DNA of 64,000 bases from a virus. Lineage: Duplodnaviria > Caudoviricetes. The translations under genes and the position numbers were made by a program. Of the stretch, positions 21,280 through 49,652 are shown in pieces (the stretch's first letter is position 1; the number at the start of each line of letters is the position of its first letter). The stretch lies in the IMG/VR virus record IMGVR_UViG_3300029288_000008, positions 21,550-85,549 of that record. One strand, 5' to 3'. Under the pieces are notes generated by a model that ran no database searches, had not been told where the DNA came from, and saw only the letters and a list, made by a program, of their open reading frames with translations.

Positions 21280-21646
21280 ATTGTTGTTTAAGTTCAAGTT
21301 GACGTTCTTTTAACAGTTCCTTCCAGACTCTACCAAAAGCTATTTTACGCCCAAGTCGGTAGTTGAAATTGTCAATTGTATTACAATGGGCAACTCCTAC
21401 GAATTCTCTACCGTCTTCTAATACCAAACGGCAGATGGTCATACCACCCCTACCTGACGGTACGAATGTTTTGAAATTGCGCTTGTAGCGGTAAAGCCGA
21501 TCTGATGTATACAAATTGTCGGTATTGCGTTTGTTGTTTTGTTCAGGATAACGCCAATGCTCGTAAATTACTCTAATGACCTTCATTTCAAATTCTCCTT
21601 TTGTAATCAGATAAAAGCATTGTAGCACTATTGTAAAATCTGTCAA
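21260..21646 (-). CDS. Hypothetical phage protein (RGG.TIC...G.A.C...DNF..LGRKIA..R motif)
   Basis: ORF track; true start probably at MKVIRV. Confidence 0.65.
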   Translation of the reverse strand: MTDFTIVLQCFYLITKGEFEMKVIRVIYEHWRYPEQNNKRNTDNLYTSDRLYRYKRNFKTFVPSGRGGMTICRLVLEDGREFVGVAHCNTIDNFNYRLGRKIAFGRVWKELLKERQLELKQQFDELPF

Positions 21647-31456: not shown

Positions 31457-32269
31457 TTAGTTTACCTTTATTCCTGTAATTTCTTCAAACACCGTTGCAT
31501 CAAACCATTCCCATTCTACAAATTCTTTCTTTAGTTCTTCTGGGATTGACCTCCACCAAATCTCACAAGCCGTTTTATAATCGCGCTTTAACAATACCCC
31601 TTCTTGACATTCGTACTTTTTGTACTCTTCTTTCTCTTCTTCTGTCATATCGTCAAATGACAGCCAGTATGTTAATGGAAATTCGTAATTGTACAACAAA
31701 CAGCGAATGTTTTCATACTTGTCGTCATTAAAGAAGTCTTCAAACTCAATATCGGTTTGCTTGTTAAAAATGCGCATTTTTGGAGTATCGCTGCAAAACA
31801 ATCCTGAATTCCAATTGCCTGAATTCCAATTGCCTGAATTCCTATCGCCTGAATTCCAATCGCCTGAATTCCAATCGCCTGAATTCCTATCGCCTGAATT
31901 CCAATCGCCTGAATTCCTATCGCCTGAATTAGCTAATCCGCTATTAGCTTTACCCAAATTTACCACTTCAAGAACTTCATTCCAAGTTAATTCTCGAACA
32001 ATTTCAATATCATCTGTAACGCTCTTATCATCACTGTCAAAAACTTCACCACGTGCAACAACTTCACACACACGGTTTCTAATATCGAATGAATAATAAT
32101 TAAAAACGTCTTTAGCCTTACGACAAAAATGAAAGCCAGATTCGCACAATTCAATCCTGCCATTATGCTTATAACGTTTTCCAACCTCATATTGAAAGTT
32201 GTTACGACACTGCAAATTTTCATCAAAACATTTGTATCCTGTAACCATTTCTATTCTCCTTTTCTCCAA
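31457..32269 (-). CDS. Pentapeptide-repeat (NSGD(W/R)) protein with conserved GYK.FD..L.CR..FQYEVG N-domain
   Basis: About nine NSG(D/N)(W/R) repeats; GFHFC motif. Confidence 0.85.
   Translation of the reverse strand: MEKRRIEMVTGYKCFDENLQCRNNFQYEVGKRYKHNGRIELCESGFHFCRKAKDVFNYYSFDIRNRVCEVVARGEVFDSDDKSVTDDIEIVRELTWNEVLEVVNLGKANSGLANSGDRNSGDWNSGDRNSGDWNSGDWNSGDRNSGNWNSGNWNSGLFCSDTPKMRIFNKQTDIEFEDFFNDDKYENIRCLLYNYEFPLTYWLSFDDMTEEEKEEYKKYECQEGVLLKRDYKTACEIWWRSIPEELKKEFVEWEWFDATVFEEITGIKVN
31803..31932 (-). repeat. 15-bp tandem repeat encoding the NSGDW/NSGDR units
   Basis: cctgaattcc(a/t)atcg repeated in register. Confidence 0.9.
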
Positions 32270-46638: not shown

Positions 46639-46718
46639 TTTTCTATATTTTGCCTATTGACAGAAAACGTATTTTCGACTATAATACTAATATCTGAGAG
46701 CGACAAAGGAGCCGATAA

Positions 46719-46988
46719 ATGAACATCTATGAAATGACCATCCAAAAATTCAGCGAATTCACCGGTAGTAAACTGACCATATGGGAGAGTGAGAAGTCGA
46801 AAGTTTGGATGGAATCAGACAAGAACTTTGATGTTTATGTATACGTTCTAAAAAACGGTAAAGTATCTGCACGCCGTTGGATGATCGGCTCGTTGGTATA
46901 TAGTAATGGAGTTATGCGCTACCAGTTGAATTCTGAGTACAAACTCAAAACCGATTATGCGGCTTGGGTAAAGCAAGTATCGGCTTGA
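46719..46988 (+). CDS. Hypothetical protein
   Basis: Promoter near 46656, AAGGAG RBS. Confidence 0.65.
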   Translation: MNIYEMTIQKFSEFTGSKLTIWESEKSKVWMESDKNFDVYVYVLKNGKVSARRWMIGSLVYSNGVMRYQLNSEYKLKTDYAAWVKQVSA

Positions 46989-47085
46989 CACCACTGGATA
47001 TAGTGGTATAATTCACCTTATAATCATTATAAAAACAATCAATTCAGCATTCAGCCAAAAGCCGATGGTGAATTATTGTTTAGTA
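46985..47085 (+). promoter_or_regulatory. Promoter with embedded operator + leader hairpin (family member E) driving the tnpB operon
   Basis: TTGACA-16-TATAAT with the near-palindrome ACCACTGGATATAGTGGT in the spacer; hairpin 47034-47080. Confidence 0.6.
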
Positions 47086-47104
47086 CGGCAAAGGATGACA
47101 TATA

Positions 47105-47341
47105 GTGAAAACTGGTTATTTATGTCTAAACGGTTATGCTGGCCGTTCTGAAACGAAAGTTGAAATAATCGGTGAAACTAAAGATCGGTATAGAATAAGG
47201 GCAATAACAAAAACCAGACTAGCCGGTGAAAACCGATGGTTAAATCCCGGTGAAATTGAACTAGTTCCAAAATACGCAATGATAAGGATTGAAAGCAATG
47301 AAACAACAGTACAAATGGGAACGGCGCGAAAAGAAGTATAA
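47105..47341 (+). CDS. Hypothetical protein
   Basis: GTG start; ORF track. Confidence 0.6.
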   Translation: MKTGYLCLNGYAGRSETKVEIIGETKDRYRIRAITKTRLAGENRWLNPGEIELVPKYAMIRIESNETTVQMGTARKEV

Positions 47342-47430: not shown

Positions 47431-48552
47431 ATGAAGGCATATAAAGTTAGACTTGAATTAAACAACAAGCAAAAGACGTGGTGCAATCGCTGCGCAGGCG
47501 CTTCTAGGTTTGTTTATAATTGGGGATTGTCTGAATGGAAAAGACAATATGATGCATACAAAGAAGATAATACACTGAAAAGACCGTCTCGGTATGGTTT
47601 ATGTGTACAGTTTAATTCAGAAAAAGATGTTGTGTGTAAATGGATTAGAGAATATCCGTATGCTATAACTGAGGCGGCTTTTGAATGTTTAGGGAAAGCC
47701 TTTGATAACTTCTTTACACGTATCAAAAAAGGAGATTCTAAACTTGGCTATCCTAAATTTAAGAATCGCTATTCAAGAAAAACATTTAGACTGAGGGGAG
47801 TTAAAGTGGAATCGGATCGTGTATTCCTTCCTAAGTTGGGATGGATAAGACTGTCACAGACTGATTATATACCGGTTGGCGCAAGCTATGGAATTTATGC
47901 AACGATTAGCGAACGTGCCGGACACTGGTATATTTCGGTTTTGGTGAAAGATGAAACTGAAGTAAAGGCCGATTTGAATAATACCGTAATTGGAATTGAC
48001 TTTGGTATAGAATCTCTTGCGGTTTTGTCTAACGGGAAGGTATTTGACAATCCCAAACCACTAAGAGAAGCACAGTCAAAATTAAAACGATTACAAAGAG
48101 AACTATCAAGAAGAAATAAAGGTGGTAGTAATTATGCAAAAACAAAAGCACGTTTAGCTAAAGCAAATTTTACGGTTGCAAAAATTAGAGAGCACACTTT
48201 ACACCAAATCAGTAGTTATATAACCAATATTTGTAAACCATCGGTTATAGTTTTAGAGGACTTGAATGTGTCCGGTATGCTTAAGAATCATTGTCTTGCT
48301 CAATCTGTATCGGATGTTGGATTTTACGAATTGCGACGACAGATTGAGTATAAAGCAATTGCACTTGGTATAAAAGTTGTTTTTGTTGATAGATGGTTCC
48401 CATCCTCAAAGACTTGTTCTAATTGTGGATGCATAAAAGACGATCTTACATTAGGTGATAGAACATTTGTTTGTAACGATTGTGGACTTGAAATTGATAG
48501 AGACTTAAATGCAGCTATTAACTTGCGTAATATGGTAAGTGTGGTAGAATAA
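47431..48552 (+). CDS. tnpB: RNA-guided endonuclease TnpB (IS200/IS605/IS607 OrfB), catalytically intact
   Basis: HTH_OrfB N-terminus AYKVRLE.N..Q...AGASRFVYNWGL, RuvC-I GIDFG, RuvC-II VLEDL, Zn finger CSNCG/CNDCG, RuvC-III DRDLNAA. Confidence 0.95.
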   Translation: MKAYKVRLELNNKQKTWCNRCAGASRFVYNWGLSEWKRQYDAYKEDNTLKRPSRYGLCVQFNSEKDVVCKWIREYPYAITEAAFECLGKAFDNFFTRIKKGDSKLGYPKFKNRYSRKTFRLRGVKVESDRVFLPKLGWIRLSQTDYIPVGASYGIYATISERAGHWYISVLVKDETEVKADLNNTVIGIDFGIESLAVLSNGKVFDNPKPLREAQSKLKRLQRELSRRNKGGSNYAKTKARLAKANFTVAKIREHTLHQISSYITNICKPSVIVLEDLNVSGMLKNHCLAQSVSDVGFYELRRQIEYKAIALGIKVVFVDRWFPSSKTCSNCGCIKDDLTLGDRTFVCNDCGLEIDRDLNAAINLRNMVSVVE

Positions 48553-48680
48553 TAAAAGTGAAGGGCGAATCGCGCCCGGATTGCTTAGGGAGTTAGGTGG
48601 TAGTAATAGCCTACTGTGAACTAAGAAGTTGGTATCGAATTTTGAATAAATCCAACGCGCACATTAAATTGTGGTATCTC
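48530..48680 (+). ncRNA. Putative omega-RNA (scaffold + guide) of TnpB
   Basis: Located at the tnpB 3' end; hairpins GGGCG/CGCCC and GTTGG/CCAAC, GGGAGTTAG..CTGTGAACTAAG pattern typical of tnpB ends; boundaries approximate. Confidence 0.6.
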
Positions 48681-48710
48681 CAAGTGGAGTATAGTTATGC
48701 GTACTTAAGG

Positions 48711-48800
48711 GTTTACTCCACACACGTGGGGGTATATGGGATAAATATACTTGAACCATTTGTCTATTGTCGTTTACTCCACACACGTGGGGGTATATGG
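48711..48800 (+). CRISPR. CRISPR mini-array: two identical 29-bp type I-E-like repeats and one 32-bp spacer
   Basis: GTTTACTCCACACACGTGGGGGTATATGG at 48711-48739 and 48772-48800; spacer GATAAATATACTTGAACCATTTGTCTATTGTC; CTCCAC/GTGGGG stem and 8-nt 3' handle as in I-E repeats. Confidence 0.85.
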
Positions 48801-48888: not shown

Positions 48889-49434
48889 ATGGAATCAACA
48901 GACACCAACATTAAAACGGTAGATAATCATATTTATATGTACTGTGACATTACACCCAAATCAGCCCTAGAGTTGATTGAAGAATTGCAAAAGCTGAACC
49001 GAAAGCTGTTAGTTGACAATGTGGTGAATTTTGGGACTATGCCAATTGTATTGCATATCAATTCAGATGGTGGGGATATGGCATCATCTTTTGCAATTGC
49101 CGATATGATCAAAAACCTAGAAACAGCGGTATACTCTATTATTGAAGGGGTTGCTGCTAGTGGGGCAACAATCATTAGTAGCGGTTGTGATAAACGCTAT
49201 ATTACCGAAAATTCCCTGATGCTGTTACACCCCATGTTTTCAGTATACTGTGGAAATTACGAGGAACTAAAAGATCAATCGTTTGGTAATGATCTGGCTA
49301 TGAAACAATACGTTCGATTCTATGTTAAACACAGTAAGCTAACTAAGAAGGAAGTTAAACGGCTGTTAAAGCGTCAATCCTGGTTAAGTCCAGAAATGGC
49401 ATTAGAATATGGATTAGTTGACGAGGTGATCTAA
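48889..49434 (+). CDS. clpP: ClpP-like serine protease
   Basis: LHINSDGGD, EGVAASGAT (Ser), LMLLHP (His), WLSPEMALEYGLVDEVI. Confidence 0.9.
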   Translation: MESTDTNIKTVDNHIYMYCDITPKSALELIEELQKLNRKLLVDNVVNFGTMPIVLHINSDGGDMASSFAIADMIKNLETAVYSIIEGVAASGATIISSGCDKRYITENSLMLLHPMFSVYCGNYEELKDQSFGNDLAMKQYVRFYVKHSKLTKKEVKRLLKRQSWLSPEMALEYGLVDEVI

Positions 49435-49652
49435 TGTATTGGGTAAAGTACATACGGTATAGCACTGTATTTTCAGCTTATTTTACAACTACTGGCGATA
49501 TGTATGAATTCTTATGTATACTCGATGATAATCACAGTGTAAAAAAGTTTAAGTTTGGAGAAGATGGAGAAACGCTAAACGAAAGCTGTTTTGGATGGGA
49601 AAAGTTTTCTAAATCTTCAATGAGACTATATGAGAATATGTATGAACAATAA
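49434..49652 (+). CDS. Hypothetical protein
   Basis: ORF track, coupled to clpP. Confidence 0.55.
   Translation: MYWVKYIRYSTVFSAYFTTTGDMYEFLCILDDNHSVKKFKFGEDGETLNESCFGWEKFSKSSMRLYENMYEQ

Follow-up and report, generated by a model that had tools for sequence, protein, structure and literature searches.

A 64,000-nucleotide stretch of a tailed-phage genome (hereafter the window; IMG/VR record IMGVR_UViG_3300029288_000008, positions 21,550 to 85,549) carries a gene for the RNA-guided nuclease TnpB, an omega-RNA scaffold and a short CRISPR array of type I-E appearance, in this order and on the same strand. The window makes up the final 64 kb of contig C2 (85.5 kb), which belongs to a 1.25-Mb, 17-contig bin (G000). 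Rather than being a stray insertion, the combination of TnpB, scaffold and array is a phage module that has been conserved. We put at about one half the probability that this TnpB, which is related to those of IS607-type insertion sequences (IS) and lacks TnpA, takes its guides from the array, which would be filled by the type I-E Cas1-Cas2 integrase of the host. The first-pass annotation of this DNA, made from the letters alone, had proposed a phage-domesticated TnpB in line with a type I-E-like mini-array, and as architecture this proposal is supported.

The conservation of the module was established in relatives of the window, referred to here by locus (L). The nearest TnpB relatives (61-74% identity, from JGI, ENA and Logan assemblies) represent eight independent lineages. 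In 8/8 lineages at >=61% identity, I-E-like repeats were found beside TnpB, either downstream, upstream or both. The repeats co-diverge with the TnpB protein and keep their hairpin; the spacers are unrelated. A recurring I-E repeat with variable spacers had been suggested as a check on homologs, and relatives at 40-74% identity carry both, with the repeats in the same place and orientation as in the window. Among 80 more distant relatives on phage contigs (35-49% identity), arrays are present in few (L019, L023 and L046/48/51, and weakly in L025). In a maximum-likelihood tree (quick IQ-TREE search), all rows of the window's clade have arrays (10/10; Shimodaira-Hasegawa-like approximate likelihood ratio test, SH-aLRT, 94; 97-99 at inner nodes); L046/48/51 group apart from them, in another clade with arrays. 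Sister to the window's clade is L020/L021, an ordinary IS607 element in which a serine recombinase gene abuts tnpB and the right end reads ...GAACGG. The placement of the two clades and of this IS607 sister indicates that the linkage is old and was gained at least twice, from IS607-type elements. The earlier idea of a nascent TnpB-to-type-V association therefore stands as architecture but not as nascent, since the association is ancestral to the whole clade.

Could an IS element have landed by chance beside a pre-existing phage mini-array, with no functional link between them? TnpB is common in phages (217 records at E < 1e-40 in 50,697 deposited phage genomes), mostly without arrays. The recurrence of the same junction in 10/10 clade members and in a second clade, the co-diverging repeats and the single-copy TnpB with neither tnpA nor IS ends nevertheless make a coincidence highly improbable. 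The deposited phages contain no member of the TnpB clade at >=60% identity (the best is 44% identical and has no array), and a megablast search of the locus against them gave no match.

The nuclease is intact. TnpB matches the Pfam domains HTH_OrfB_IS605, OrfB_IS605 and the Cas12f1-like TNB zinc ribbon, each of them above its curated cut-off (E 1e-14 to 1e-24). The RuvC triad and zinc finger that had been noticed at first are complete, with D190 (GIDFG), E276 (LEDLN) and D358 (DRDLNAA) in the former and the pairs C329/C332 and C348/C351 (CxxC..CxxC) in the latter, and none of these residues varies among 26 TnpB relatives. The closest solved relative is ISDra2 TnpB, which is colinear over residues 2-368 (E 1e-50). 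The match to Cas12n is only partial, and that to LaTranC covers the RuvC half alone (E 4e-23). The observation that neither tnpA nor a serine recombinase lies nearby was extended to the bin, in which no Y1 transposase was found and the sole serine recombinase is on contig C1, not on the phage contig. No IS ends were found at TnpB, and the gene is single-copy in the bin. TnpB is thus TnpA-less and fixed in a phage operon, and is not part of a transposon.

The promoter at 46985-47012, in which the palindrome CCACT..AGTGG is embedded, is likely the start of the TnpB-containing operon. The first-pass annotation had described this promoter as operator-containing and the TnpB start codon as overlapping a small upstream phage open reading frame (ORF). 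Both descriptions proved accurate, and the ATG (47431) lies inside the small ORF (stop codon at 47442-47444), with an overlap of 14 nt. The small ORF may encode a regulator of the module. A second perfect consensus promoter (12/12; TTGACA-17-TATAAT) is located at 46657-46685, 330 nt upstream of the first. In a leachate strain (run X5), 18 nt at window positions 47082-47101, just downstream of the 46985 promoter, are replaced by 411 other letters. Two distant relatives have a small ORF directly upstream of TnpB that is ribbon-helix-helix-like by eye (L099:2359-2535 and L109:1121-1195), and the small basic ORF of the window occupies the same position.

Downstream of the gene, the omega-RNA-like hairpin region noted at first is a selected RNA structure. 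About 110 nt after the TnpB stop align across 13 scaffold copies, and 23/26 predicted pairs are compensated (RNAalifold). The scaffold consists of stem 1 (GGGCG/CGCCC), a long-range helix (CTTAG/CTAAG) that encloses a further, inner stem, then stem 3 (GTTGG/CCAAC) and, as its tail, GCGCACATTAAAT. A candidate pseudoknot connects GGAUU after stem 1 with AAAUC in the stem-3 loop. When this pseudoknot is included, 92.6% of cells pair, compared to 31-45% when the pairing partners are slid, and 0/500 shuffles reach the observed covariation. A pseudoknot of the tail with the stem-1 loop, seen by eye in L046, the window and L017 but not in all lineages, is not relied on. No Rfam family covers the scaffold, and the covariance-model match in the window (48559-48664, 104.6 bits) is the only one in the window and the rest of C2.

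Scaffolds also occur without a TnpB ORF. The covariance model located standalone copies in L017 (497-605), L101 (2285-2393), L105 (520-625) and L010 (5708-5815, minus strand). Each has an 11-13-nt linker and then a repeat or array behind it, and the copies of L101 and L010 come with a promoter of their own. The 3.6-kb contig L017 has three scaffold copies (480-2380): one ahead of a 5-repeat array, another fused to the 5' untranslated region (UTR) of TnpB and the third within the 3' end of TnpB, ahead of a 2-repeat array. In L025 (4078-4917), two convergent copies surround degenerate I-E-like repeats, and this locus may be a third array-bearing lineage. The end of the scaffold was set from the three L017 copies, because they have sequence in common up to CTTTAAC and then diverge; this comparison places it at 48669/48670 in the window. 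The omega-guide that had been proposed at 48657-48680 is mostly conserved scaffold tail (48657-48669), and the flank begins at 48670 by comparison with relatives. Between scaffold and linker, the window has a 28-nt insert with a decayed repeat-like hairpin (CTCCA-AG-TGGAG). The insert also reads TGTGG..TATC.CC, like the 5' UTR before TnpB in L105 and L017, and it may derive either from a repeat or from such a UTR stretch.

The array was first described as two identical 29-bp repeats with a 32-nt spacer about 160 nt after the TnpB stop. The measured distance to repeat 1 is 158 nt, the repeats are unique in the window and the bin, and 0/100 shuffles contained any match. The type I-E assignment was upheld by the repeat layout of 5+6+4+6+8 (6-bp stem, 4-nt loop and 8-nt 3' tail), which is that of the E. 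coli I-E repeat (compared with L106). The window linker corresponds to TTATGTTTTAG(A) of the relatives, and it is similar to TATACTTTTAGA, the end of the E. coli I-E leader. The 11-13-nt linkers ahead of repeat 1 in relatives (TTATGTTTTAGA, TATTGTTTTAGT, TTTATTGTTTAAG and CTATTGTGAAG) resemble the leader end of E. coli CRISPR1, ATGTATACTTTTAGA|GAGTTCCCC, taken from an E. coli genome. Of the leader, the window array has the end motif only, with no full leader upstream.

The content of the array turns over between near-identical strains on the scaffold-proximal side. A wastewater contig (run X3) has 1 mismatch over 48152-48738, with the nuclease end unchanged. After repeat 1 it has 34 other letters and then, on the scaffold side, another repeat copy; its next spacer aligns with the window spacer only with six indels. 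L015 and L016 have identical TnpB proteins and are one spacer-repeat unit apart. In the E. coli I-E system, the 29th base of the repeat derives from the protospacer-adjacent motif (PAM). This base varies between G and T here (repeat 1 of L015 and of X3). Spacers are 32-33 nt long in most lineages. Taken together, the spacer length, the variable 29th base, the leader-end motif and the scaffold-side turnover point to a type I-E Cas1-Cas2 integrase.

Some units are of other lengths. Downstream of TnpB in L101 (3710-3825) are two consecutive 43-nt units, which can be read as a 29-nt repeat (~25 nt conserved) with 14-nt spacers or as a conserved repeat core of ~25 nt with ~18 variable nt. A 57-nt unit lies upstream of TnpB in the same locus (L101:2404-2490), L102 also has non-canonical periods, and L103 has a 16-nt spacer (1-93). 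Because the two unrelated L101 spacers share the same short length, a ruler other than the I-E integrase is suggested for them.

Table 1. Features of the TnpB locus and its surroundings (window coordinates).
Feature	Position	Strand	Basis or remark
Consensus sigma-70-type promoter, TTGACA-16-TATAAT, TG-extended, with embedded inverted repeat	46985-47012	+	12/12 hexamer match
Two small overlapping ORFs	47105-47341 (78 aa); 47289/47299-47444 (about 48-51 aa, basic)	+	No family match
TnpB, 373 aa	47431-48552	+	Pfam domains, RuvC triad, zinc ribbon, tree
Omega-RNA scaffold	48559-48669	+	Alignment, RNAalifold, covariance model
28-nt insert absent from relatives	48670-48697	+	Alignments, upstream regions of relatives
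Linker before repeat 1, TGCGTACTTAAGG	48698-48710	+	Alignment with relatives, E. coli leader end
CRISPR repeat 1, GTTTACTCCACACACGTGGGGGTATATGG, type I-E-like	48711-48739	+	
Spacer, 32 nt	48740-48771	+	No protospacer found
CRISPR repeat 2, identical to repeat 1	48772-48800	+	
Head maturation protease (ClpP-like), start of structural module	48889-49434	+	Context gene only

How would such a module work? In the proposed mechanism, it would combine an IS607-type TnpB without transposase, its omega-RNA scaffold and the same-strand I-E-style mini-array directly downstream. New spacers would be inserted at the scaffold-proximal repeat by the type I-E Cas1-Cas2 integrase of the host, to which the integrase is assigned because the phage encodes none. 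TnpB, and not host Cascade alone, would then use guides made of the 3' part of the repeat and the first 16-20 nt of the spacer, as has been shown for the phage nuclease Cas12r (bioRxiv 10.64898/2026.04.20.719267). The primary transcript, running from scaffold through linker and repeat to spacer, could itself be the RNA by which the newest spacer guides TnpB. This use in cis is favoured over one in trans because no anti-repeat was found and because every array has its own scaffold immediately upstream. The module would likely be directed against competing mobile elements or phages.

Several observations favour the use of the array by TnpB. An intact nuclease and scaffold have been kept clade-wide without tnpA, and a cis scaffold precedes every array. 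The 43-nt periods of L101 and the 16-nt spacer of L103 are units unable to make type I-E CRISPR RNAs (crRNAs), and the ~25+~18 nt of L101 closely match the 26+18 nt of the Cas12r crRNA. The bin has no I-E cas genes. A further and more doubtful proposal is that the host I-E integrase directly reprograms the omega guide RNA, through a continuous scaffold-linker-repeat-spacer transcript and without pairing to a tracrRNA (trans-activating CRISPR RNA) or splitting of the RNA. If true, direct reprogramming would add a third path leading from omega-RNA to CRISPR and would explain both the short arrays and the separate cis scaffold of each.

Other observations weigh against guide supply by the array. 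The short-spacer and single-repeat units could be decay products. The ~40 nt of linker and repeat between scaffold and spacer have no structural precedent, because the ISDra2 guide directly follows the pseudoknot, and the window has the extra 28 nt between scaffold and linker. Its repeat-spacer-repeat layout is fully compatible with use by host Cascade, and type I-E adaptation is suggested by array features only. A search for an anti-repeat found repeat-scaffold duplex energies no better than those of shuffles (z near 0) and no conserved position. No intermolecular helix of >=5 bp is common to more than 4/12 lineages, a test that a pseudoknot-type contact of 3-4 bp would escape. A same-sense alignment of the repeat with the scaffold 3' end gave no significant likeness (z near 0). 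Targets are also missing from the sets searched. The window spacer, which the first-pass annotation had proposed to trace in viromes and hosts, has no protospacer in its own bin, deposited phages, IMG/VR (exact 20-mer) or metagenome contigs (exact 22-mer). None was found for the X3 spacer, nor in deposited phages for the spacers of the L046 and L017 arrays. In the absence of protospacers, no PAM or transposon-associated motif could be derived. A candidate pairing of the repeat handle (GGAU/GAUU) with A(A/G)UCC in loop 3 is possible in most lineages and was set aside; it has no covariation support because the loop-3 motif hardly varies.

The main rival explanation, which we consider doubtful, is that the mini-array is served only by a host I-E system, with processing by Cas6e and Cascade-Cas3 acting against competitors. 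TnpB and its omega-RNA would then be a separate passenger or homing element. Its guide would be the sequence after the scaffold, which in relatives comprises the leader end and the start of repeat 1, and TnpB would home into, or hold its place at, the heads of I-E-type arrays in sibling phages or hosts. Mini-CRISPR arrays carried by viruses, and likewise solitary repeat units, have reportedly been found to exploit host Cas proteins, in work attributed to Medvedeva (2019) and Faure (2019). Like the window array, those of viruses are short, cas-less and made of host-type repeats; unlike it, they are not fused to an RNA-guided nuclease with a scaffold. The repeat-spacer-repeat layout of the window, its 32-nt spacer, repeat architecture and leader-end motif are all canonical for type I-E. 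Spacer turnover requires a host I-E integrase, and a host with this integrase usually has Cascade. The lack of an anti-repeat connecting repeat and scaffold also fits this explanation, as does the location of repeat 1 or the linker at the exact guide position expected by the IS607 rule. In L101, L103 and L105, the TnpB gene lies between two arrays, which resembles insertion into an array, and the sister lineage is a real IS607 with serine recombinase. Service by Cascade alone leaves unexplained, however, the standalone scaffolds before arrays (some with their own promoters), the intact nuclease and scaffold kept down to 47% identity without tnpA, and the units with 43-45-nt periods, which Cascade could not use. 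Moreover, the flank after the scaffold in the window is not the leader-repeat junction, so a homing guide is not conserved here.

The bin also provides no I-E cas genes for such a system, though it may not be the host. The absence of cas genes from the window, as first reported, extends to the whole of C2; the only Cas1 of the bin belongs to a type V-B locus on contig C9, and neither Cas7e nor Cas6e was found in the bin. The suggested part of a host Cas6e and Cascade thus gained no support from the bin, and no matching array was found there or elsewhere. A match of the repeat to host arrays had been proposed as well. In exact or 3-mismatch searches, the window repeat was not found in metagenome contigs, IMG/VR or 400 genomes of the bin's phylum, and gave only 2 chance hits in 185,579 species genomes. 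These two hits are a terminator and a tRNA start, not a host array. As a candidate host the bin was rejected: guanine-cytosine (GC) content is 38.9% in the phage contig and 43.1% in the main contig of the bin, no spacer connects the two, and bin membership is weak evidence for a host. The type V-B locus on C9 (L004:1319-8222) encodes a 1089-aa Cas12b/C2c1, Cas2 and a fusion of Cas4 with Cas1. Between cas12b and cas4/1, the opposite strand carries a gene for a DDE transposase, and the contig ends before any array.

Phages are said to carry repeat-only decoys, a finding associated with Camara-Wilpert and colleagues (2023). In the same way, the repeats of the module could be RNA decoys (RNA anti-CRISPRs of the solitary-repeat type) that, at high expression, soak up Cas6e or Cas7 of a host I-E system and so weaken its CRISPR immunity. 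The spacer would then be irrelevant, and the TnpB/omega-RNA unit would only supply strong transcription. The arrays are indeed very short, the L010-L014 lineage has a single repeat after each scaffold, strong promoters precede the units and one wastewater run covers the L010-type scaffold at very high depth. Set against this, the spacer lengths of 32-33 nt have been kept and the array turns over at its scaffold-proximal end, which suggests selection on spacer content. The leader-end integration motif has been retained, and decoys would need neither an intact nuclease nor a covarying scaffold. We therefore regard a decoy function as improbable.

The association of TnpB with an array is of a kind published in 2025-26 (TranC and Cas12r). 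The closest published system is the Cas12r-CRISPR of Thermus Lalka phages (Trofimova et al., bioRxiv 10.64898/2026.04.20.719267, April 2026 preprint). As in the window, a phage nuclease derived from TnpB has behind it, on its own strand, a short array of 29-bp I-E-like repeats that lacks cas genes. Cas12r arrays have 31-33-nt spacers with an ARG PAM, the crRNA measures 26+18 nt and a single repeat is enough for a guide. New spacers enter at the nuclease-proximal end, and host I-E adaptation has been proposed (bioRxiv 10.64898/2026.04.20.719267). In contrast to the window, Cas12r has 564 aa, only 15 bp separate its ORF from the array, neither a scaffold nor a tracrRNA is present and its branch of TnpB is thermophile-only. 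The window protein has 373 aa and aligns colinearly with ISDra2 TnpB, and its gene is separated from the array by a 110-nt covarying scaffold. Its size and retained scaffold argue against membership in Cas12r.

TranC nucleases have been described as transposon-CRISPR intermediates (Jin et al., Cell 2025, cited in PMC13565253), and CauTranC9 is a TnpB-sized TranC from a Caudoviricetes genome (bioRxiv 10.64898/2026.03.27.714800). In TranC, a TnpB-like nuclease of IS605 or IS607 origin is likewise found with an array and without adaptation genes, in some cases in phages. The omega-RNA of TranC is split into a tracrRNA and a crRNA, and repeats of 32-38 bp pair with an anti-repeat. The window differs in its borrowed I-E-type 29-mers and in a scaffold that is whole and in cis; neither an anti-repeat nor derivation of the repeat from the scaffold was detected. 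ISDra2 TnpB and its omega-RNA (IS200/IS605-IS607; PMC10097598; PDB 8H1J and 8EXA), in which the guide directly follows the pseudoknot, share with the window a full-length protein match, the D-E-D triad, the zinc ribbon and, in the same order, the stems, long-range helix and candidate pseudoknot of the RNA. Unlike ISDra2, the window has no transposase and no ends, its TnpB is single-copy in a phage operon, and a CRISPR array occupies the position of the flanking guide. The phage type V-M nuclease MvCas12m of a myxophage also has I-E-like repeats, which resemble those of its host, but at 610 aa it is a Cas12m and belongs to another branch (bioRxiv 10.64898/2026.09.14.751636).

In the published intermediates between TnpB and CRISPR, the omega-RNA has been split (TranC) or has been dropped and the protein enlarged (Cas12r). 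The window's clade joins a full covarying scaffold and a TnpB-sized protein to an array with the hallmarks of host I-E adaptation. Should TnpB read the array, it would be the smallest spacer-programmable nuclease in nature, supplied by the integrase of another system, and the step from TnpB to CRISPR would be testable in a 1.9-kb cassette. Otherwise, the clade would still be an example of an RNA-guided element living at the heads of CRISPR arrays.

The window is recognisable as part of a tailed phage by its tRNA cluster, NrdD, tape measure protein, minor tail protein and head maturation protease. A 72-aa ORF that follows the protease (49434-49652) is absent in strains of three other studies (runs X2, X3 and X4), in which 222-229 nt are skipped and 8-15 letters stand instead. 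A scan for arrays also turned up a tandem 12-nt repeat, GCCTGAATTCCAAT-like, at 31832-31901. At the end of contig C10 of the bin (L007:6626-6785), four head-to-tail copies of a 40-nt unit with a CCCCGCGAAAGCGGGG hairpin were found; these are not a CRISPR array, because they have no spacers. DNA nearly identical to the window is present in public DNA runs from landfill, which is probably the source, and from sediment, wastewater and leachate. In run X4, the depth at window positions 48546-48679 is 582, owing to an L010-type scaffold that has a 31-mer in common with the window, and the L010-type phage lineage is very abundant in this wastewater sample.

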